A stretch of 64,000 bases of DNA from an uncultured Verrucomicrobiae bacterium. GTDB taxonomy: Bacteria > Verrucomicrobiota > Verrucomicrobiia > Limisphaerales > UBA8199. The position numbers and the translations under genes are program-made. Each line of letters opens with the position of its first letter. Position 1 is the stretch's first letter. The notes beneath the pieces are model-generated. The model did not search any database. It saw only the letters and a list, made by a program, of their open reading frames with translations, and was not told where the DNA came from. Location of the stretch: NCBI GenBank assembly GCA_963809845.1, contig CAWELO010000014.1, positions 157,307 through 221,306 of the forward strand. The letters run 5' to 3'. Below, in pieces: positions 4,798 to 60,433 of this stretch.

Positions 4798-5676
4798 TCA
4801 GGCCAGTCGCTTTGCCCGCAGATGCAGTTCGTCCAGGACGGTTTGCAGCAGCGCGGAGACCTTTCCGCGCCACAGGGCGCCTACGATCACGGGGGGAAAA
4901 TCAGCCTTGGGCAACGGGAGCGCCTGGACGTTCGGGGGGAGCACCGCCTTGGGCACCAGGACAGACAGGCCAATCCCGAGTCCGTGGCTGACGTAGGTTT
5001 CGACGAGGTCGATGGAGCTCACTTCGATGCTGGTAAACCAATCCACGCCCAGCCGGGCCAGCCCCTGTTGAAAATGACGGCAGATCGTCTCGGCCTCGGG
5101 GAGGCAGATCAACGGCTCGTCGATCCGGTCTCGCTTCCACAGTTGCTCCGGAGCGGCCACCCCGCTGCCTTTCTCGACCAGCAGCGTCAAGGGCAATTCG
5201 AGCAAGGCAGCCGTATGAATGCCCGGGGCGGATTTCTTTTCGATCAATGTCACGGCCAGGTCGATCTCCTCCTTCTGCAGCAGGCCTTCCAATTCGGCCT
5301 GATACCCTTCGCGCAACGCCATCCGCAAGGCGGGATACCGTTTCCGCAGGCTGTGGAAGAACTCCGGAAAGTGATCGCGCAGGACAATGGTCGAGGCGCC
5401 GATCCGGATCTGGCGCGTCTGGCCGCCCTGCAAATCACTGGCCATGGCGTCCAGCCCTGAAAAGAAGGGATGAATGAAGCGGTAGAGCTTTTCCCCCGCG
5501 GGGGTCAGCAGGAAGGGCCGGCGCTGGAACAGCGTCACGCCGAGGTGCGCCTCCAGTTGGGCGACCTGTCCGCTGACGGCCGGTTGCTGGATGCCATAAG
5601 GAATATTGCGCACCGCTTCCATGATGCCTCCGTGCTTCGCCACATAGTAGAACAGTTCCAGGTGATGAATGTTCAT
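4798..5676 (-). CDS. LysR-family transcriptional regulator
   Basis: Start chosen at MNIHHLELFYYVAKHGGIMEAVRNIPYGIQQPAVSGQVAQLEAHLGVTLFQR, the LysR wHTH. A periplasmic-binding-like effector domain follows. Confidence 0.85.
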   Translation of the reverse strand: MNIHHLELFYYVAKHGGIMEAVRNIPYGIQQPAVSGQVAQLEAHLGVTLFQRRPFLLTPAGEKLYRFIHPFFSGLDAMASDLQGGQTRQIRIGASTIVLRDHFPEFFHSLRKRYPALRMALREGYQAELEGLLQKEEIDLAVTLIEKKSAPGIHTAALLELPLTLLVEKGSGVAAPEQLWKRDRIDEPLICLPEAETICRHFQQGLARLGVDWFTSIEVSSIDLVETYVSHGLGIGLSVLVPKAVLPPNVQALPLPKADFPPVIVGALWRGKVSALLQTVLDELHLRAKRLA

Positions 5677-5809: not shown

Positions 5810-5905
5810 GGATGGGGCGTCGCTACGCGACGCGCGGTCTCGGGGGGACGGGGATCCATGGACTGAAGTCCATGGCTACCGTCGTTCGTCGCTACGCGAC
5901 AGGGA
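5810..5905. repeat. REP-like cluster of GC-rich hairpins
   Basis: GCGTCGC-TAC-GCGACGC (5817-5833). CCATGGAC-TGAA-GTCCATGG (5856-5875). A second CGTCGCTACGCGAC copy at 5887-5900. Confidence 0.6.
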
Positions 5906-5934: not shown

Positions 5935-6017
5935 CTGTTTTTAGCTAACCCCTCCTTTGGCTAACCCCCTCTTCTGGTTAACGCCTCTTTGGCTGTCGCC
6001 TCTTTTGGCTGTCGCCT
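5935..6017. repeat. Five degenerate 15-18-bp tandem repeats (TTTGGCT[A/G][A/T]C[C]CCTC) about 60 bp upstream of glgA
   Basis: Read directly: ttagctaacccctcc / tttggctaaccccctcttc / tggttaacgcctc / tttggctgtcgcctc / ttttggctgtcgcctggg. Confidence 0.6.
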
Positions 6018-29422: not shown

Positions 29423-29518
29423 GCCGTTCAGACCAAAGGCCTGGGTCATACCAGCCCGGGGCAAACCACGCCCCGGGTTCATGGGCCCGAGAGCATAGTC
29501 TGAGCGCTGAAGGCGCGA
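29423..29518. repeat. REP-like triple-hairpin element, subfamily B
   Basis: gaccAAAGGCCTgggtcataccagCCCGGGGcaaaccacGCCCCGGGttcatgg...gagcgctgaaggcgcga. An inverted copy lies at 47337-47430. Confidence 0.7.
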
Positions 29519-29635: not shown

Positions 29636-29750
29636 TGAACGCAGTGAACCCTATGAGGCAGGCCGTTGGCCTGCAACCCTGAAGAACGGGCCATGAACCT
29701 AGGGCGCTGCCCTAGGCTGGTATGACTGACGCCGTTGGCGTCCAAAACCC
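29636..29750. repeat. REP-like triple-hairpin element, subfamily A
   Basis: CAGGCC-gtt-GGCCTG, CCTAGGGC-gct-GCCCTAGG and GACGCC-gtt-GGCGTC. Inverted copies lie at 37550-37672 and 47173-47298. Confidence 0.75.
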
Positions 29751-31391: not shown

Positions 31392-31427
31392 GGCGAACCG
31401 GCACGAATGCCGGCTCGCCCTTTTTTT
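31392..31427 (+). terminator. Intrinsic-terminator-like hairpin plus T7 run, with no upstream plus-strand gene
   Basis: GGCGA-a-CCGGC acgaat GCCGG-c-TCGCC c TTTTTTT. The flanking genes diverge from this spacer. Confidence 0.5.
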
Positions 31428-31429
31428 AA

Positions 31430-33654
<2,225 letters not shown>

Positions 33655-34199: not shown

Positions 34200-34358
34200 A
34201 TAATGTAACTGCTTATAGTGGAAAACCTCTAGGACCCATCACCGGTTCTTCCCGGCCAGTCCGGTCTTCCTAATCCAACAGACGCGCAGCAGCGGATTTG
34301 GTTACAACCAACAATGGACGTGACATCAGGCGGCGGCCATGGGAGATTCTGGCGAATT

Positions 34359-34952
34359 ATGAAGATGTTGTTATCGATTTGTGCCTTTACTGTCGTATTG
34401 GGCCTGGCGACCGCCAGGGCTGAGGATTCGAAAAAGGAAAGCGCTTCCGCTGCGAAGGAAGTTGCCGTGATCAAGACCACCGAGGGTGAGATGGTCATCG
34501 AGTTTTGGCCGGATGTGGCGCCGAAGACCGTCGAAAACTTTAAGACGCTGGCGCGCAAGGGCTTTTACGACGGCACCTGCTTTCATCGCGTGATTAAGGG
34601 TTTTATGATTCAAGGTGGAGATCCGCTCACCAAGGATCCTGCCGCGGAGGGCCGTTGGGGCACCGGCGGTCCCGGTTACACCATCAAAGCTGAATTCAAC
34701 GATCACCATCATGACCGGGGGGTGATCTCGATGGCCCGCACCCAGGATCCCGACTCGGCCGGCAGCCAGTTCTTTATCTGTCACGGCAGCCCGCGACAGC
34801 TCGATCACCAGTACACCGCATTTGGCAAGGTGATCAAAGGCGATGATGTGCTCGAAAAGATCGCCACTACCCCCACCCATCCCCCCGACCGGCCTGACAA
34901 GCGCATGGGCATTGAATCCATCAAGATTGTGCCGGCGGATTCGATCAAGTAG
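34359..34952 (+). CDS. ppiA: Exported cyclophilin-type peptidyl-prolyl cis-trans isomerase
   Basis: Signal peptide starts at MKMLLSICAFTVVLGLATARA. Then FHRVIKGFMIQGGDP, ISMARTQDPDSAGSQFFI and YTAFGKV. Confidence 0.85.
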   Translation: MKMLLSICAFTVVLGLATARAEDSKKESASAAKEVAVIKTTEGEMVIEFWPDVAPKTVENFKTLARKGFYDGTCFHRVIKGFMIQGGDPLTKDPAAEGRWGTGGPGYTIKAEFNDHHHDRGVISMARTQDPDSAGSQFFICHGSPRQLDHQYTAFGKVIKGDDVLEKIATTPTHPPDRPDKRMGIESIKIVPADSIK

Positions 34953-35095: not shown

Positions 35096-35623
35096 ATGAG
35101 CAACGGAAACAAAGAAGTGGCCGTGGTAAAAACCACCGCCGGGGAAATGGTCCTTGAATTATGGCCCGACGTGGCCCCCAAGACCGTCGAGAATTTCAAA
35201 ACCCTCGCGGAGAAGGGCTTTTATGATGGAACGGCGTTTCACCGGATCGTCAAGGGGTTCATGATCCAGGGCGGGGACCCGCTGACGAAGGATGCCGGCC
35301 AGGCGGATCGCTGGGGCACGGGCGGCCCGGGCCACACGGTGAAGGCCGAGTTCAATGACCGCTCGCACGAGCGGGGCGTGATCTCGATGGCGCGCTCGCA
35401 GGACCCCAACTCTGCCGGCAGCCAGTTTTTCATTTGCCTGGGCGATGCCGCGTTCCTGGATCGAAAGTACACGGCTTTTGGCAAACTGTTGCGCGGCGAC
35501 GATGTGCTGGCCAAAATCGGCGATACGCCGGTGGGGATGAGCAACGGCGGCGAGAAGAGCAAACCGCTTTCCCGCGTCGGCGTCGAGAGCATCCGCGTGG
35601 TGGTGTCCGATGCCTCCCACTGA
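35096..35623 (+). CDS. ppiB: Cytoplasmic cyclophilin-type peptidyl-prolyl cis-trans isomerase
   Basis: FHRIVKGFMIQGGDP, ISMARSQDPNSAGSQFFI and YTAFGKL. No signal peptide. Confidence 0.9.
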   Translation: MSNGNKEVAVVKTTAGEMVLELWPDVAPKTVENFKTLAEKGFYDGTAFHRIVKGFMIQGGDPLTKDAGQADRWGTGGPGHTVKAEFNDRSHERGVISMARSQDPNSAGSQFFICLGDAAFLDRKYTAFGKLLRGDDVLAKIGDTPVGMSNGGEKSKPLSRVGVESIRVVVSDASH

Positions 35624-37285: not shown

Positions 37286-37451
37286 GGCGTAAGGACGTAA
37301 AACGTAATGACGTAAAACGTAACAACGTAACAACGGAATGACGTGATGACGTGATGACGTGATGACGTGATGACGGAATGACGTGATGACGGAATGACGC
37401 GATGACGGAATGACGTGATAACGTAACAACGTAATACGTAACGACGTAAGG
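37286..37451. repeat. Direct array of about 20 ACGT-core octamers (core run GTGATGAC / GGAATGAC)
   Basis: ...acgtaaaacgtaatgacgtaaaacgtaacaacgtaacaac ggaatgac gtgatgac gtgatgac gtgatgac gtgatgac ggaatgac gtgatgac ggaatgac gcgatgac ggaatgac gtgataac gtaacaac gtaatac gtaacgac gtaagggg. Confidence 0.8.
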
Positions 37452-37549: not shown

Positions 37550-37672
37550 CCGGAGTTTTGAGACGCCAAAGGCGTCGGTCATACCAGCCCAGGGCACACG
37601 CCCTGGGTTCGTGGCCGGGCCCTTGGGGTTGCAGGCCAACGGCCTGCCTCATAAGGTGTGCGCGGTTCATTT
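37550..37672. repeat. REP-like triple-hairpin element, subfamily A (inverted relative to 29636-29750)
   Basis: GACGCC-aaa-GGCGTC, CCAGGGC-acac-GCCCTGG and CAGGCC-aac-GGCCTG. Confidence 0.75.
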
Positions 37673-37885: not shown

Positions 37886-38797
37886 ATGAACACGAACTCG
37901 CGAGAGCTCAGTTGCGTGGAAAGAACCCACGCCTTCACCCTCATCGAATTATTGGTCGTCATTGCCATCATCGCCATCCTGGCGTCGATGTTGCTGCCGG
38001 CCTTGAGCAGGGCCAAAGCCAAGGCGCAGGGCATCGGCTGCATTAATAACAACAAGCAGCTTTGCCTGGCGTGGCATATGTACTCGACGGACAATTCCGA
38101 TCAAGTCGCGAATAATTTTGGAGTCGGTGAGACCACCACGGCCATCAACAACGGGAAGCTGAACAACTGGGTGAATAACGTTATGACCTGGGGGGCCGGT
38201 AATAATGTGGATGACCGGAGCAATACCAACCCCACTTGGGTTGCGAATGGGGTGCTGGGGAAATACACGGCCGGGGCGATCGGGGTTTACAAATGCCCCG
38301 CAGACAATTACCTGAGCCCTGCTCAGCGGCAGGCGGGTTTTACCCGGCGGAACCGGAGTCTTTCGATGAACTCGATATTCGGACTTTTCAGCAGCGATGC
38401 GGAGTCGGGCGACACCACCTACCAGGGTAAGAATTGGGGGTTTTCACAGTATGCCCAGTATCTTAAACAGGCTTCCGTCTTAAGGCCGGCGAAGACCTGG
38501 TTGTTCCTGGATGAACATCCCGATTCGATTAACGACGGCTACTTCATCAATAACCCTGCCGCTACTTCGTGGCAGGACACTCCGGCCTCGTATCATGGCG
38601 GGGCGTGCGGGTTTTCGTTCGCGGACGGTCACGCGGAGATTCGGAAGTGGCTGAGCAGGACCTCGAACTATCTGGTGCAATACAGCTACGGCAACCGGAT
38701 GAACTTCGATGCCGCCGGAAAACTGGACTTTCAGTGGTACCTGGAGCGGACGGGCTACGTGACCGCTGCCGGCGGGATACCGCAGTTTGGGTATTAG
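37886..38797 (+). CDS. Prepilin-type N-terminal cleavage/methylation-domain protein (type II secretion / pseudopilin-like, DUF1559-like)
   Basis: [44 protein letters not shown], followed near the C-terminus by [15 protein letters not shown]. Confidence 0.85.
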
Positions 38798-38837: not shown

Positions 38838-41075
38838 TGGGCGAGGGCCGGAGGGCCGGAAGACGGAAGACGGAGGGCGGAGGGATTGGGGATGCCCTTC
38901 CGGAACTCGCCGTGTAACCATGCCTGTATCCCGAAGGGATTTGAGCACTCAGCCCAGGGTTGCGAGTCGGCGAGCTACCCTGGGTCTGCGACGCCCGAAG
39001 GAAAGTGTTCTATCCTGAAAGGATTGGAGCGCATGCCCGCGCGGACCGCGCTGAAACCCTTTCAGGGTAAATGACCCTCCGGCCGGTCTGGACCCAGGGT
39101 AGCTCGTGCCTCGCAACCCTGGGCTGAGTGCTCACGATCCTTTCAGGATGAGAATGGGTGCGTTCGTGGGCGCGGACCCTGCCGCGCGCATCGGCCCTGC
39201 TGGCGGGGAGGCTTCTTTTGTCCCGAAGAGGGCGGAGGGCCGGAAGACGGAGGACGGAGGACGGAGGGCGGAGGGCGGAGGGCGGAGGGCGGAGGGATTG
39301 GGGATGCTTCCGGAACTCTGGGTAACGTGGCTGTATCCCGAAGGGATTCTAGCACTCAGCCCAGGGTTGCGAGTCGGCGAGCTACCCTGGGTCTGCGACG
39401 CCCGAGGGAAAGTGTCCTATCCTGAAAGGATTGGAGCGCATGCCCCCGCGGACCGCGCTGAAACCCTTTCAGGGTAAATGACCCTCCGGCCGGTCTGGAC
39501 CCAGGGTAGCTCGTGCCTCGCAACCCTGGGCTGAGTGCTCACGATCCTTTCAGGATGAGAATGGGTGCGTTCGTGGGCGCGGACCCTGCCGCGCGCATCG
39601 GCCCTGCTGGCGGGGAGGCTTCTTTTGTCCCGAAGAGGGCGGAGGCCGGAAGACGGAGGGCCGGAGGGATTGGGGATGCCCTTCCGGAACTCGCTGGGTA
39701 ACGTGGCTGTATCCCGAAGGGATTTGAGCACTCAGCCCAGGGTTGCGAGTCGGCGAGCTACCCTGGGTCTGCGACGCCCGAAGGAAAGTGTTCTATCCTG
39801 AAAGGATTGGAGCGCATGCCCCCGCGGACCGCGCTGAAACCCTTTCAGGGTAAATGACCCTCCGGCCGGTCTGGACCCAGGGTAGCTCGTGCCTCGCAAC
39901 CCTGGGCTGAGTGCTCACGATCCTTTCAGGATGAGAATGGGTGCGTTCGTGGGCGCGGACCCTGCCGCGCGCATCGGCCCTGCTGGCGGGGAGGCTTCTT
40001 TTGTCCCGAAGAGGGCGGAGGGCCGGAAGACGGAGGACGGAGGACGGAGGGATTGGGGATGCCCTTCCGGAACTCGCTGTGTAACGTGGCTGTATCCCGA
40101 AGGGATTTGAGCACTCAGCCCAGGGTTGCGAGTCGGCGAGCTACCCTGGGTCTGCGACGCCCGAAGGAAAGTGTTCTATCCTGAAAGGATTGGAGCGCAT
40201 GCCCCCGCGGACCGCGCTGAAACCCTTTCAGGGTAAATGACCCTCCGGCCGGTCTGGCCCCAGGGTAGCTCGTGCCTCGCAACCCTGGGCTGAGTGCTCA
40301 CGATCCTTTCAGGATGAGAATGGGTGCGTTCGTGGGCGCGGACCCTGCCGCGCGCATCGGCCCTGCTGGCGGGGAGGCTTCTTTTGTCCCGAAGAGGGCG
40401 GAGGGCCGGAAGGCGGAGGGCGGAGGGATTGGGGATGCCTTTCCGGAACTCGCTGGGTAACGTGGCTGTATCCCGAAGGGATTTGAGCACTCAGCCCAGG
40501 GTTGCGAGTCGGCGAGCTACCCTGGGTCTGCGGGGCTCGAACGAAAGTGTTCTATCCTGAAAGGATTGGAGCGCATGCCCCCGCGGACCGCGCTGAAACC
40601 CCTTCAGGGTAAATGACCCTCCGGCCGGTCTGGACCCAGGGTAGCTCGTGCCTCGCAACCCTGGGCTGAGTGCTCACGATCCTTTCAGGATGAGAATGGG
40701 TGCGTTCGTGGGCGCGGACCCTGCCGCGCGCATCGGCCCTGCTGGCGGGGAGGCTTCTTTTGTCCCGAAGAGGACGGAGGGCCGGAAGGCGGAGGGCGGA
40801 GGGCGGAGGGATTGGGGATGCCCTTCCGGAACTCGCTGGGTAACGTGGCTGTATCCCGAAGGGATTTGAGCACTCAGCCCAGGGTTGCGAGTCGGCGAGC
40901 TACCCTGGGTCTGCGACGCCCGAGGGAAAGTGTTCTATCCTGAAAGGATTGGAGCGCATGCCCCCGCGGACCGCGCTGAAACCCTTTCAGGGTAAATCAC
41001 CCTCCGGCCGGTCTGGACCCAGGGTAGCTCGCGGACTCGCAACCCTGGGCTGAGTGCCGGAATCCTTTCAGGATG
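38838..41075. repeat. Tandem array of six ~376-406-bp composite palindromic units (last copy degenerate)
   Basis: The landmark gtatcccgaagggatt recurs at ~38927, 39333, 39709, 40090, 40467 and 40848. The landmark gggctgagtgctcacgatcctttcaggatg recurs at ~39121, 39527, 39904, 40287 and 40663, with a degenerate copy at 41047. Whole units are near-identical, so there are no unique spacers. Confidence 0.9.
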
Positions 41076-41077
41076 AG

Positions 41078-41392
41078 GTCGGAACCGAAGCCCAGAGTTG
41101 CGCCCGCATCCAGCAACGACCGGAACCTGTAGGCGCCTTGGGCGCGTTCCCGTCCGAGGCGCTTCTCACACCATCGCCCGTCGTCGGCGGCATCGGTACG
41201 GTTGCATGGAAGCGATGACATGTTCGGCGGCGAAGCTGGGGAAATCGCCGTGGCCCAGGTGCTGAGCGTGCTCGATGCGGAAGCGCCGGTCGCGCGGGCC
41301 GTTCGTTAGAGCGGCCAGGCGGTAGAGTCGAGGATGCGCCGGTTTGCCTCCTCACCGATGCGGTTGCCGGCGATGGCGATGGCCTGTGCCCG
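41078..41392 (-). pseudogene. Decayed amidohydrolase-family remnant (internally deleted, frameshifted, 3'-truncated at the repeat array)
   Basis: Minus-strand pieces lie in three frames: [12 protein letters not shown]..., [10 protein letters not shown]...VIASMQPY, and [36 protein letters not shown]. The last runs directly into repeat sequence at 41078. Confidence 0.5.
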
Positions 41393-41467: not shown

Positions 41468-42790
41468 ATGCGTTACCGACCGATCAACCCGGAATTGTTT
41501 CTCAACAACCGCGCGAACCTGGCCAAGCTGATGCCGCCCAACTCCCTGGCGCTAGTGAACGCGAATGACATCCTGCCCACCAACGCCGATGGCACGCTGG
41601 CTCTGCGGCAGAATTCGGATTTGTTCTATCTCACTGGCATTGACCAGGAGGAAAGCGTTCTGCTGGTGTATCCCGAGGCCGCTGAGGAAAACATGCGCGA
41701 GATCCTGTTCTTGCGCGAGACCAACGACCTGGTGGCCACGTGGGAAGGGCATAAGCTGACCAAAGCGGAGGCGAGGGCGGTTTCCGGCGTCAAGCGCGTC
41801 GAGTGGCTTTCGGAATTTCGCCCTTTGTTCCACCGGCTGATGTGTGAGTGCGATCAGGTTTATCTGAATACGAACGAGCACAAGCGGGCCGTCATCGAGG
41901 TGGAAACCCGCGATGCCCGCTTCATCGAGGACACCCAACGGCGCTATCCCCTGCACGACTACCGACGCCTGGCCCGTTTGATGCACCGGCTCCGCGCCGT
42001 GAAGTCCAATCTCGAAATCGATCTCCTTCGCCAGGCTTGCGCCATTACCAAGGCCGGGTTTCTGAGGGTCTGCCGCTTCGTCCGCCCGGGCGTCAACGAA
42101 ACGGAAATTGAAGCCGAGTTCGCCCACGAGTTTATCCGGCGCGGTGGGAATTTCGCCTACTGGCCCATCATTGCCAGCGGCCCCAACGCGTGTGTCCTGC
42201 ACTATATTCAAAACGACCAGACGTGCAGGAAAGGCGACCTGCTGCTGCTGGATGTCGCTGCCAGCTACGCCAACTACAACTCGGATCTGACCCGCACGAT
42301 TCCGGTGGGCGGCCGCTTTACGCGGCGTCAACGGCAGGTGTATAACGCCGTGCTGCGGGTCTTGCGAGCGGCCAGCCAGGCGGCGACCCCGGGAAAACTG
42401 CCCAAGGCCTGGCAGAAGGAGGCCGAGGCCTTCATGCAAAAGGAGCTGGTCGATTTGGGTTTGTTAAAAATGTCCGAGATCCGAAAGCAGGATCCCGACA
42501 AGCCCGCGCTCAAAAAGTACTTCATGCACGGGATTGGCCATCCGCTGGGGTTGGATGTTCACGACTTGGGCCTGACCACCGAACCCATCCAGGCCGGCTG
42601 GGTGCTCACGGTCGAGCCGGGGATCTACCTGCCCAAGGAAGGTTTTGCCGTGCGCCTGGAAAACGATGTGTTGGTCCAGGAAGGCGGAAACCTCGATCTC
42701 ATGGCGGACATCCCCATCGAGGCCGACGCGATCGAGCGCCTGATGCAGGTCCAGCGCGGGCCGAAACCCACTCGCAGGCGCGGGGCCTGA
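41468..42790 (+). CDS. pepP: Xaa-Pro aminopeptidase (M24B)
   Basis: SDLFYLTGIDQEESVLL, LLLLDVAASYANYNSDLTRT, FMHGIGHPLGLDVHD and VLTVEPGIY. Confidence 0.85.
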   Translation: MRYRPINPELFLNNRANLAKLMPPNSLALVNANDILPTNADGTLALRQNSDLFYLTGIDQEESVLLVYPEAAEENMREILFLRETNDLVATWEGHKLTKAEARAVSGVKRVEWLSEFRPLFHRLMCECDQVYLNTNEHKRAVIEVETRDARFIEDTQRRYPLHDYRRLARLMHRLRAVKSNLEIDLLRQACAITKAGFLRVCRFVRPGVNETEIEAEFAHEFIRRGGNFAYWPIIASGPNACVLHYIQNDQTCRKGDLLLLDVAASYANYNSDLTRTIPVGGRFTRRQRQVYNAVLRVLRAASQAATPGKLPKAWQKEAEAFMQKELVDLGLLKMSEIRKQDPDKPALKKYFMHGIGHPLGLDVHDLGLTTEPIQAGWVLTVEPGIYLPKEGFAVRLENDVLVQEGGNLDLMADIPIEADAIERLMQVQRGPKPTRRRGA

Positions 42791-47017: not shown

Positions 47018-47109
47018 GGTAAATTGGGAGCGCGCCCATCCACGCCGCCGACAGGCCCCCCCGGTGAAGGGGCGCAGGACGAGGCTCCCCGGGAGCGAGA
47101 CCGAACCAA

Positions 47110-47193
47110 CCCGCAGGGATTTTGTGACAACCTGCAGGGTTTTTGAGACAACGCGCAGGGGTTTTGAGACAACGCGCAGGGGTTTTGAGACGC
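47110..47193. repeat. Four tandem 21-bp copies of the terminal segment of REP subfamily A
   Basis: ccgcagggattttgtgacaac / ctgcagggtttttgagacaac / gcgcaggggttttgagacaac / gcgcaggggttttgagacgcc. Confidence 0.8.
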
Positions 47194-47298
47194 CAACGGC
47201 GTCGCTCATACCAGCCCAGGGCACCCGCCCTGGGTTCATGGCCCGGCGTCTGGGGTTGCAGGCCAACGGCCTGCTTCATAAGGTGCGCTGGGTTCATC
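47173..47298. repeat. REP-like element, subfamily A
   Basis: GACGCC-aac-GGCGTC, CCAGGGC-accc-GCCCTGG and CAGGCC-aac-GGCCTG. Confidence 0.75.
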
Positions 47299-47336: not shown

Positions 47337-47430
47337 GAATCGCGCCTTCAGCGCTCAGAATGTTTTCTTGAGCCATCAACCCAGGGCGTGTGCCCTGGGC
47401 TGGTATGATGCAGGCCTTTGGCCTGAACGG
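47337..47430. repeat. REP-like element, subfamily B (inverted relative to 29423-29518)
   Basis: tcgcgccttcagcgctcag...CCAGGGC-gtgt-GCCCTGG-gctggtatga-tgCAGGCC-ttt-GGCCTG. Confidence 0.7.
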
Positions 47431-47439
47431 CAGGTTGCC

Positions 47440-47555
47440 CAGCCCACGGATTGCCCACACGGATGCCCACAGGATTGCCCACATGGATTGCCCACATGGA
47501 TTGCCCACACGGATTGCCCGCGCGGATTGGCCGCACGGATTGGCCGCAGGGTTTG
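47440..47555. repeat. Nine tandem ~13-bp repeats (GCCCACAYGGATT, drifting to GGCCGCACGGATT)
   Basis: Read directly: agcccacggatt gcccacacggat gcccacaggatt gcccacatggatt gcccacatggatt gcccacacggatt gcccgcgcggatt ggccgcacggatt ggccgcagggttt. Confidence 0.8.
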
Positions 47556-47671
47556 CCGTAAGGCCGGGTTCGATGGCCGTTTATTTTCGGGCAAACATCC
47601 AGGATCGTCCAAACTCCCGCAGCACTGTGCGGCCTTCGAAGCACGCTGTCCTGCGCCCCCCCTCTCCAAGA

Positions 47672-57336: not shown

Positions 57337-57510
57337 GGGAGCTCCTCGGCATGAACCGCGCCATCCGCAAGCGGATTGCCGAGGCGCCAGAGTTTCATGG
57401 CCGGATACTAACGCCTGGGGCGCGCCGAGTAAAGTTGAGCGGCGATGATCAGGCGCGCCTCGGAACCGGGCGCGCCTCGCAATCGGGTGAGGCTCGTCGT
57501 CGGTTGATTT

Positions 57511-57590
57511 GTCCCGAAGGGACAGGCGAAAACAGCCCAATGCTTCAGCATTGGGTCAGGGGCAGACAAAGCGACAAGTCCCGAAGGGAC
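57511..57590. repeat. Hairpin triplet (family D): GTCCC-gaa-GGGAC / CCCAATGC-ttca-GCATTGGG / GTCCC-gaa-GGGAC
   Basis: Hairpins at 57511-57523, 57536-57555 and 57578-57590. A degenerate copy lies at ~60248-60292. Confidence 0.6.
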
Positions 57591-57852: not shown

Positions 57853-58379
57853 TCTCGGACGAGGCGCCTATTCCTTTTTTTCTTGGCTTCGGGCGGGGAC
57901 CGGCGTAGGAATGCATCGTTCTTTGATAGCGGTGGATCTTGTGTCCACCTGTAGTCACAGCCAGGCGTCAGGGAACCCCGTGAGAATCGGGGACGGTTGC
58001 GCCACTGTAACGGGTTACGAGCTCCCACCCGCGGGTTAACGCCGCGGCTTGAGCCACTGGTTTCTTTCGAGACCGGGAAGGCGGGAGTGAGGTTTTGATG
58101 CCCGAAGTCAGGATATCGGCTTGGTTGTGCTCGTCATGGTCGTCGTCAAAGACAGGCGAAATCCTGTCCGCCCGGCGGCCAACTTCTCCGTCAAGAGAAG
58201 GATGAGGCCAGCCCGGCGCGCGTGTGCGCGCGGGGATTCGTCGGATGCCTTCATTCTCCGTTTTGCCGAGGGCTGAAGGTTTTTTGTTGCCACTGAACAG
58301 GTTTCCTTCGGCTTCCGCGCTGGTCTCTCAATCGCAACCCGCCCTGTGTGTCCCACGGGGCAATTGAAAGATCAGCCTT

Positions 58380-60196: not shown

Positions 60197-60433
60197 TTCG
60201 ACCCGATTGGATTTCCTGGGAAAGATGGGCAACCTGCCGGCAGTTTCATCCCGGAGGGACGCCTGGGAATAGCCCAACGCTTCAGCGTCGGGATCGAGGA
60301 TTTGAAGCGGGCAAGACCCGACGGGACGGCTGAGTGCCGTGCATCAACCAATAAGTTTGTCCTGCATCCCCGCCGCGCCGCGGAGCAACAAGGTGCTGGA
60401 CTGCGGCCAGGCCAAACCCCAAATTGCCTGCGA

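Follow-up and report, generated by a model that had tools for sequence, protein, structure and literature searches.

What is the block of long, near-identical palindromes that fills 2.2 kb of intergenic DNA in an uncultured Verrucomicrobiae bacterium, and how did it arise? The block lies in a stretch of 64,000 nucleotides (nt), referred to below as the window, from contig CAWELO010000014.1 (positions 157,307 to 221,306 of the forward strand; GenBank assembly GCA_963809845.1; Limisphaerales, UBA8199). A preliminary description, made from the letters alone, placed a tandem array of six units at 38838-41075 and offered three possible explanations: a tandemly expanded miniature inverted-repeat transposable element (MITE), an array of structured RNAs, or a recombination or replication-slippage hot spot. 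Our analysis indicates that the array is most probably a tandemly amplified cluster of six Y1-transposase-dependent palindromes of the REPIN type (doublets of repetitive extragenic palindromic, or REP, sequences forming a hairpin), multiplied together with flanking DNA. This reading is carried by the build of the core and its conservation in other genomes, by a transposase gene that the same modules bracket in relatives, by the covariation of the hairpins and by a linker that is unique to the locus.

Architecture of the array

The array spans approximately 38845-41077 (about 2.2 kb) and is composed of 6 palindromes of about 222 bp and 5 linkers of about 150 bp, that is, five full units and a sixth which is truncated after its right small hairpin (the array, its palindromes and its left and right linkers are given without strand). 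Tandem Repeats Finder reported the repeat at 39257-41077 with a period of 376, 4.8 copies and 95% matches, the call beginning late because unit 1 is more divergent. All six cores were located by two exact anchors, TATCCCGAAGGGATT at 38927, 39334, 39710, 40093, 40469 and 40852, and ATCCTTTCAGGATGAG at 39137, 39544, 39920, 40303, 40679 and 41062; the periods are therefore 407, 376, 383, 376 and 383 bp. The six-unit array was thus borne out with slightly refined limits, and the repetition itself is real, but the periods first given (406, 376, 381, 377 and 381) were slightly off. Alignment of the six units put the left edge inside a G-rich heptamer tract, at about 38845, and the right edge at 41077, directly 3' of the sixth right-hand small hairpin. 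The 17-mer CAGCCCAGGGTTGCGAG occurs 12 times in the window, where 0.36 occurrences are expected, and every occurrence falls in the array. The whole unit of 376-407 bp repeats and there are no unique spacers, so the earlier statement that this is not a CRISPR holds.

The palindromes lie at 38928-39149, 39335-39556, 39711-39932, 40094-40315, 40470-40691 and 40853-41074. The whole 222-bp core (for example 39711-39932) is a single long imperfect palindrome, and it consists of an inverted doublet of a module of about 100 nt with three hairpins, namely a small hairpin, the arm CCCAGGGTAGC...GCAACCCTGGGCTGA and a second small hairpin. Read from the left, the core begins with hairpin hp1 (ATCCC-GAA-GGGAT), a short linker (TTGAGCACTCAG in most units) and the left arm CCCAGGGTTGC...GCTACCCTGGG; it continues with hp2 (ATCCT-GAA-AGGAT), a 31-nt spacer centred on GCGCGG-A-CCGCGC, and hp3 (ACCCT-TTC-AGGGT), and it ends with the right arm CCCAGGGTAGC...GCAACCCTGGG, the tail CTGAGTGC and hp4 (ATCCT-TTC-AGGAT). 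These small hairpins are present as they had been listed. Within the module, the first small hairpin is followed, after about 20 nt, by an 8-bp stem CCCAGGGT/ACCCTGGG, in which an A-A mismatch is conserved and the apex varies; the tail and the second small hairpin come next. The polarity of the module is set by the A-A mismatch, which is T-T on the other strand, and by the tail.

In unit 1 the left arm is at 38949-38984 on the minus strand, where it reads CCCAGGGTAGCTCGCCGACTCGCAACCCTGGGCTGA, and the right arm is at 39093-39127 on the plus strand, reading CCCAGGGTAGCTCGTGCCTCGCAACCCTGGGCTGA. The equivalents of the left arm end at 39391, 39767, 40150, 40526 and 40909, and those of the right arm start at 39500, 39876, 40259, 40635 and 41018. 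The arm pair originally noticed at 38943-38986 and 39091-39133 was found there, with complementarity everywhere except at the centre: arm pairs, which are about 105 nt apart, match over 25 nt at 100%, are interrupted by a central mismatch of 4 against 3 nt, and then match over 16 nt at 100%. The arms of palindrome 6 are 90% complementary over 59 nt. Folded as single-stranded DNA, palindrome 3 gave a long rod at -77.9 kcal/mol (z = -10.6). By both arm complementarity and this fold, two REP-like sequences form one hairpin, as in a REPIN.

The linker of about 150 bp has three parts. The right linker (39150-39231, with one copy after each of palindromes 1-5) carries a GCGCGG-ACCCTG-CCGCGC hairpin and, on the plus strand, a weak site that resembles a terminator. 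It is followed by the heptamer tract (GGAGGGC/GGAGGAC type) and by the left linker ATTGGGGATGC...GTGGCTGT (39297-39334), which is present in all six units and is the most variable part. All of the variation in unit length comes from the heptamer tract, which measures 40-75 nt and so sets the period. The longest tract is at 39232-39296 on the plus strand and holds a G-quadruplex-type motif, and the others end at 38884, 39668, 40051, 40427 and 40810. Canonical G-quadruplex motifs arise from the tract in 3 of the 6 units and, together with the long palindromes, make the region structure-prone. No similarity to the linker was found in 31 other related loci or in the rest of the window, and a 23-mer of it is absent from the metagenome contigs of the Joint Genome Institute (JGI). 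The linker is therefore local DNA, outside the conserved element.

Between units the 270-nt core differs by 2-13 substitutions. The inner units are closest to each other (2 differences between units 3 and 4), divergence is greatest in the first and last units, and the 79 aligned nt of the right linker are 100% identical across units 1-5. The right arm of unit 6 is of another sequence type (loop CGCGGACTCG), so the high-identity repeat stops within the loop of that arm, at about 41033. That the units were amplified in tandem and homogenised through unequal recombination or slippage is suggested by the gradient of similarity, the identical right linkers and a last arm of a different type.

It had also been stated that the array holds no credible open reading frame (ORF), and we agree: none of the six ORFs tested, which cover the array and its left edge, gave a Pfam match, and the periods are not multiples of 3.

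The module in other genomes and the gene that it brackets

The 19-mer GCAACCCTGGGCTGAGTGC of the module was found at 20 loci among representative genomes and at 72 loci in JGI metagenome contigs. It is absent from viral contigs, and on this ground a phage origin was ruled out. The named genome loci are nearly all from Verrucomicrobiota, mostly metagenome-assembled genomes (MAGs), with a few from Planctomycetota or other phyla; those outside the majority include an Aeoliella MAG, a Phycisphaerales MAG and an Acidiferrales MAG. At many related loci the left arm precedes the right arm by 165-175 nt and the four small hairpins known from the window recur, their loops being present in complementary versions (AAC/GTT, GAA/TTC) according to orientation; some loci hold only one half. 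This architecture indicates that the basic unit is the module of about 100 nt, single or as an inverted doublet. The preliminary description had proposed looking for single units in relatives, and single copies of the doublet are indeed present in contigs of many Verrucomicrobiota and some Planctomycetota. Several doublets lie within 8 kb in other genomes (loci L002, L021 and L027), and in the window the family is confined to the array.

Among 103 related loci one other arm-containing tandem array was seen, at L053 (4587-5312) and likewise at L102 (4598-5310). It consists of 2.5 copies of 280 bp with 88% matches, each a single half-module plus flank, and it adjoins a tRNA gene (L053 4344-4416, minus strand). 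Ten of the 75 metagenome matches lie at most 60 nt from a contig end, where 3.3 are expected; short-read assemblies would rarely resolve such arrays.

At two of the genome loci, L003 and L020, the two halves bracket an ORF of 151 amino acids (aa) that matches Pfam Y1_Tnp (PF01797, IS200-like; E = 1.3e-21). The gene occupies the position of the spacer of about 31 nt in the window, and the inner small hairpin starts 2 bases after its stop codon. In four more homologues, fetched independently (L021, L023, L026 and L027), no more than about 110 nt separate the annotated gene from a minus-oriented arm on its upstream side, and the stop is followed after about 40 nt by a plus-oriented arm; extra doublets often lie nearby. 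The Y1 gene is also carried by 11 of the 72 metagenome loci, nine of them with both arms and two (L056 and L089) cut by a contig end, which makes 17 gene-carrying loci in total together with the six genome and homologue loci. The halves of the window palindromes align over about 100 nt with the flanks of these genes. The flanks are inverted copies of each other, so placed that on either side the tail and outer hairpin face outward from the gene. REP-like sequences thus flank a Y1 gene in inverted orientation, as expected of a REPIN-RAYT system, in relatives and not within the window. At two loci, L056 (129-162) and L076 (2591-2624), an arm abuts the start of the Y1 gene in place of the usual inner hairpin and leader, and the protein would begin MHLAKILVH rather than MPQSLAKILVH.

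The transposase gene stands alone, without tnpB. Its product has thousands of close homologues; the best 120 clusters are at least 79% identical and 151-214 aa long, and the few among them with an organism name are from Verrucomicrobiota. Such similarity fits conservation of the protein and is not proof of a single copy. The HUH motif (DHVHLL) and the motif of the catalytic tyrosine (YIxxQ; here YIAGQ) align with DHIHIL and YIENQ of IS608 TnpA (2a6m), and H56, H58 and Y116 are invariant in 24 homologues, as in a Y1/HUH enzyme. A search of solved structures with the single sequence gave no match for the transposase; with a profile, IS608 TnpA was the best match (E = 8.6e-5) and ISDra2 TnpA was also matched. 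The protein scored 57.5 bits against the NCBIfam IS200 model NF033573, whose cut-off is 55. The name 'RayT' given to homologues in JGI looks like a generic label, the curated RAYT model being unmatched. Judged from sequence, the core doublet represents, in gene-less form, an element that carries this 151-aa IS200-like Y1/HUH transposase when complete. The tandemly expanded MITE of the preliminary description was accordingly right in kind. The same description had named, among the findings that would refute it, a known insertion sequence or MITE end with an identifiable autonomous partner; an autonomous form, a Y1 gene between the same modules, was found in relatives.

The hairpins of the module are under constraint. 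Few of the 127 distinct arms vary in the 8-bp stem, and those that do are mostly changed on both sides. In 100 non-redundant modules, pairing holds in 96.8% of the consensus-structure cells (27-54% in controls with shifted partners), and double changes are seen in 148 cells, compared with 20-30 in those controls.

Known systems and the origin of the array

REPINs and RAYT transposases were reportedly treated by Nunvar et al. in 2010. Like a REPIN, the core comprises two palindromic REP-like sequences in inverted orientation that form one long hairpin. As in REPIN-RAYT systems, a Y1/HUH gene lies between inverted copies of these sequences, here in relatives; gene-less doublets appear to be dispersed in intergenic DNA; and, as in REPIN clusters, near-identical doublets stand in tandem together with their flank. 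On the other hand, the module measures about 100 nt and has three hairpins, whereas a REP measures 20-40 nt; the doublet is 222 bp long, whereas a REPIN is about 70-110 bp; and the host belongs to Verrucomicrobiota, with a transposase that fits the IS200 model and not the curated RAYT model. REPIN clusters sit beside each RAYT gene (PMC3116915), and the largest in SBW25 has 4 REPINs and 1 REP over more than 700 bp (Bertels & Rainey 2011, PMC3116915), compared with 6 doublets over 2.2 kb here. Tandem clusters of REPINs or REPs that include flanking DNA have been described before (PMC3116915, PMC3733652), those of REPINs in Pseudomonas, and Di Nocera et al. (2013) reported REP dimers tandemly reiterated with flanking DNA (PMC3733652). 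The same work lists REP families in Opitutus terrae and Rhodopirellula baltica; for the listed O. terrae REPs only 7-8 residues are encoded, far shorter than the arms of the array (PMC3733652).

The TIRtrons, in which Y1 genes are flanked by long inverted repeats, have been described in Acidobacteria and other non-proteobacterial phyla (PMC3733652). The present element resembles them (and their TIRYT transposases) in having a RAYT-like Y1 gene between long inverted repeats rather than simple REPs; some TIRtron flanking repeats also have self-complementary tracts and form moderately abundant families as dimers or clusters. The GGGGWSAS motif of some of those terminal inverted repeats is not evident here, and the arm sequence was not found in the accessible part of the supplementary files of PMC3733652. 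Members of the GTAG-tagged REP super-family have a short stem-loop that bears an unpaired GTAG tetranucleotide at one of its ends (Di Nocera et al. 2013, PMC3733652). Our arms follow the pattern CCCAGGGTAG-N(9-45)-CAACCCTGGGCTGA; every one has GTAG (CCCAGG-GTAG-C), the GT lying within the outer 8-bp stem in all of them. In several variants an inner stem-loop comes directly after GTAG, for example GTAG-GCGC-TGCT-GCGC (L002) and GTAG-CGCG-TGC-CGCG (L013), and the commonest apex, CTCGTTCCTCG, is not self-complementary. The array also recalls the bacterial interspersed mosaic elements (BIMEs) of E. coli, in which REP units alternating in orientation are tandemly reiterated in intergenic DNA. The linkers of BIMEs are short conserved motifs, in contrast to the locus-specific linker of about 150 bp with a heptamer microsatellite found here.

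The ends of IS200/IS605 elements are hairpins but are not known as inverted repeats, both hairpins acting on the same strand; a tnpB partner is often present, and palindrome-associated transposable elements (PATEs) are gene-less, palindromic, non-autonomous derivatives of them that retain the ends only. Our element shares with IS200/IS605 a transposase nearest to the IS608 and ISDra2 TnpA proteins by profile search and above the NCBIfam IS200 cut-off, as well as hairpin ends, and it shares with PATEs a non-autonomous derivative that keeps only the ends. Its flanks, however, are inverted copies of each other and tnpB is lacking; with such flanks and a lone 151-aa gene, it was not classified as an IS200/IS605 insertion sequence.

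On these grounds we propose the following course. The doublet would have arrived through the action, in trans, of such a transposase on single-stranded hairpin DNA, in the manner of REP/RAYT and IS200/IS605 systems. The doublet and about 150 bp of its flank, including the slippage-prone heptamer tract, would then have been amplified to six copies, and unequal homologous recombination between the long palindromes, or replication slippage there, may have kept the copies alike. The recombination or slippage hot spot of the preliminary description is thus plausible as the mode by which the array grew, but it is not a separate identity. The array would have no dedicated cellular function and would be at most a fragile or structure-forming intergenic site.

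Several points weigh against the reading of the array as an amplified cluster of REPIN-type palindromes. Its route of amplification, whether by recombination, by slippage or driven by the transposase, is one that we only infer. No Y1 transposase gene was found in the 64-kb window, and a partner in the same genome is assumed. Within the window the family is represented by the array only, so that the high number of dispersed copies which is a hallmark of REPs is not seen in this part of the genome; dispersed copies elsewhere in it are assumed. Arm-containing tandem arrays are rare among the other loci, L053/L102 with its 2.5 copies being the only case. In the profile search of solved structures the E. 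coli RAYT was not matched, and membership of the canonical RAYT family (NF047646, REP_Tyr_transpos) was rejected at 16 bits against a cut-off of 80. The transposase therefore appears RAYT- or TIRYT-like in its genomic arrangement, and we do not assign it to the canonical RAYT protein family.

Hairpins in single-stranded DNA are the substrate of HUH enzymes, which are able to produce multimers. The array might accordingly have been made directly by the Y1/HUH transposase, for example through rolling-circle-like copying or re-integration of excised single-stranded circles with the doublet and its flank, and not by host recombination or slippage. The second arm-containing tandem array, in L053/L102, and the 100% identity of the right arm and right linker in five units, which fits very recent copying, agree with such an origin. 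We consider it unlikely: the repeat unit includes about 150 bp of locus-specific flank outside the conserved element, and the gradient from alike inner to divergent edge units is the classic signature of unequal crossing-over. Similarly, it is improbable that the unit, with its palindrome, identical linker and G-quadruplex-prone tract, is kept as a functional or actively generated array, be it through tandem copying by the transposase or as a programmed, structure-forming site that serves replication, recombination or the making of a long-hairpin RNA. As such, the array is probably a by-product and would serve no function.

An RNA explanation would make each unit one gene, so that the array would consist of tandem copies of a structured non-coding RNA, a small RNA (sRNA) or long-hairpin RNA related to Acido-Lenti-1 (RF01687; Weinberg et al. 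2010, PMC2864571). In its favour, the hairpins covary, each unit has its weak terminator-like site on the plus strand, and both strands of whole units, folded as RNA, beat shuffled sequences by far (z = -8.6 and -10.0). The array arms also share with Acido-Lenti-1 an 8-bp stem that opens with CC and closes with GG, after which come CU(A/G), a short linker and another small hairpin, and one left arm matched the family at 22.6 bits (E = 0.029). However, good folds from either strand follow from the DNA palindrome, since the module is found in either orientation and in inverted doublets. Mismatches in the modules are G-U or U-G in 13 cells and A-C or C-A in 12; wobble and A-C mismatches being equally common, there is no sign of selection on an RNA read from one strand. 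The promoter scan found no sigma-70-like promoter, the terminator-like site being its only signal (weak, once per unit). No Rfam family reached its gathering score in the array, where a weak Acido-Lenti-1 match was all that appeared at E <= 10, or in the transposase-flanking arms, on which RF01687 gave no match. The linker is conserved nowhere among the related loci, the rest of the window and the JGI metagenomes searched, and the same modules bracket a transposase gene. We therefore consider an array of structured RNAs, as suggested in the preliminary description, to be very unlikely. As to Acido-Lenti-1 itself, the arms of the array and those flanking the transposase gene are below the gathering score of 37 bits, the apex has 16 nt and is not a tetraloop, and the family is typed in Rfam as an sRNA and not as a DNA repeat; with a best array match of 22.6 against 37 bits, the array was not assigned to it.

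Near-identical repeats of 380 bp are difficult to assemble, yet an artefact of assembly, in which the array or its copy number came from a mis-expanded or collapsed repeat, is very improbable given the unit-specific substitutions, the differing heptamer counts and the distinct first and last units, which are unlike a naive loop expansion, and given an identical flanking aminopeptidase (P0121) on a 359-kb contig, which suggests a long, well-assembled source.

As a phenomenon, a tandem cluster of REPIN-like palindromes is already known; what appears to be undescribed is this family, with its complexity and host range, and a cluster of this size. With it, REPIN/RAYT-style organisation is extended to a family that has a wide distribution among soil and peat Verrucomicrobiota and also occurs in some Planctomycetota. 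Its module is unusually complex (three hairpins in about 100 nt) and strikingly conserved, the 19-nt core being identical in many genomes. With its IS200-like transposase, the family may shed light on the origin of REP-type systems from IS200-type elements. For annotation, such palindromes and tandem clusters can be expected to interrupt assemblies made from short reads and to be taken wrongly for structured RNAs.

Other repeats and genes in the window

A second family of REP-like hairpins occurs in the window at 29453-29477 (minus), 29698-29718 (plus), 37586-37607 (minus), 47213-47234 (minus) and 47380-47401 (plus). It has the same plan as the array arms, a hairpin CCCAGGGC-GTGT-GCCCTGGG followed by CTGGTATGA and by the small hairpin GACGCCnTTGGCGTC, and the pairs 29453/29698 and 47213/47380 are inverted doublets with their tails outward. 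A generic scan for this hairpin plan returned 20 sites in the window, compared with 1.0 ± 0.9 in shuffled sequences. Acido-Lenti-1 itself is found above its gathering score three times in the 64 kb, at 5856-5901 (plus), 57510-57555 (minus) and 60247-60292 (minus), and also in L013 at 5179-5224. The three window sites lie on both strands, and each is flanked by small hairpins with GAA/TTC loops that resemble the array modules. As a lead only, the Acido-Lenti-1 'sRNA' family could be a REP-like DNA repeat, and Acido-Lenti-1, the array arms and the second hairpin family may form one super-family of DNA substrates of Y1 transposases; if so, Acido-Lenti-1 is mis-typed in Rfam.

Short-period tandem tracts adjoin REP-like modules at 47107-47191, 47445-47557, 5940-6017, 57452-57487 and 37288-37449, paralleling the heptamer tract beside each palindrome of the array. 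Their types are a 21-mer (x4), a 13-mer (x8.8), a 16-mer, a 17-mer and an 8-mer (x20), and the 21-mer unit resembles the element sequence just beyond the outer small hairpin of the second family. A palindromic microsatellite at 31427-31582, made of 7-8-mers of ACGTAA type (GTAACAACGTAA... facing TTACGTTGTTAC...), has a unit related to that of the 37288-37449 tract and stands without an adjacent REP-like module.

The array lies between a gene with an N-terminal methylation motif and a DUF1559 domain (37886-38797, plus strand) and one for an Xaa-Pro aminopeptidase (AMP_N and Peptidase_M24; 41468-42790, plus strand). Directly beside it, at 41078-41191 on the minus strand, is a short amidohydrolase-like remnant (Amidohydro_3, E = 1.2e-4, a weak match), whose aligned part meets the array edge exactly. 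The destroyed amidohydrolase gene that had been noticed there is seen as a fragment, but the evidence is a single Pfam match of 22 bits, under the cut-off of 29.7, over profile positions 339-374 of 472. Exact look-ups of the window proteins found no orthologous locus, and the closest relatives of the aminopeptidase (85-87% identity) have different gene neighbours. Upstream of the array region there are two adjacent genes for cyclophilin-type peptidyl-prolyl isomerases, at 34314-34952 and 35096-35623 (both plus strand). Elsewhere in the window, at 57946-58138 (plus strand), a full-length cobalamin riboswitch aptamer was identified with a score of 62.8 bits.

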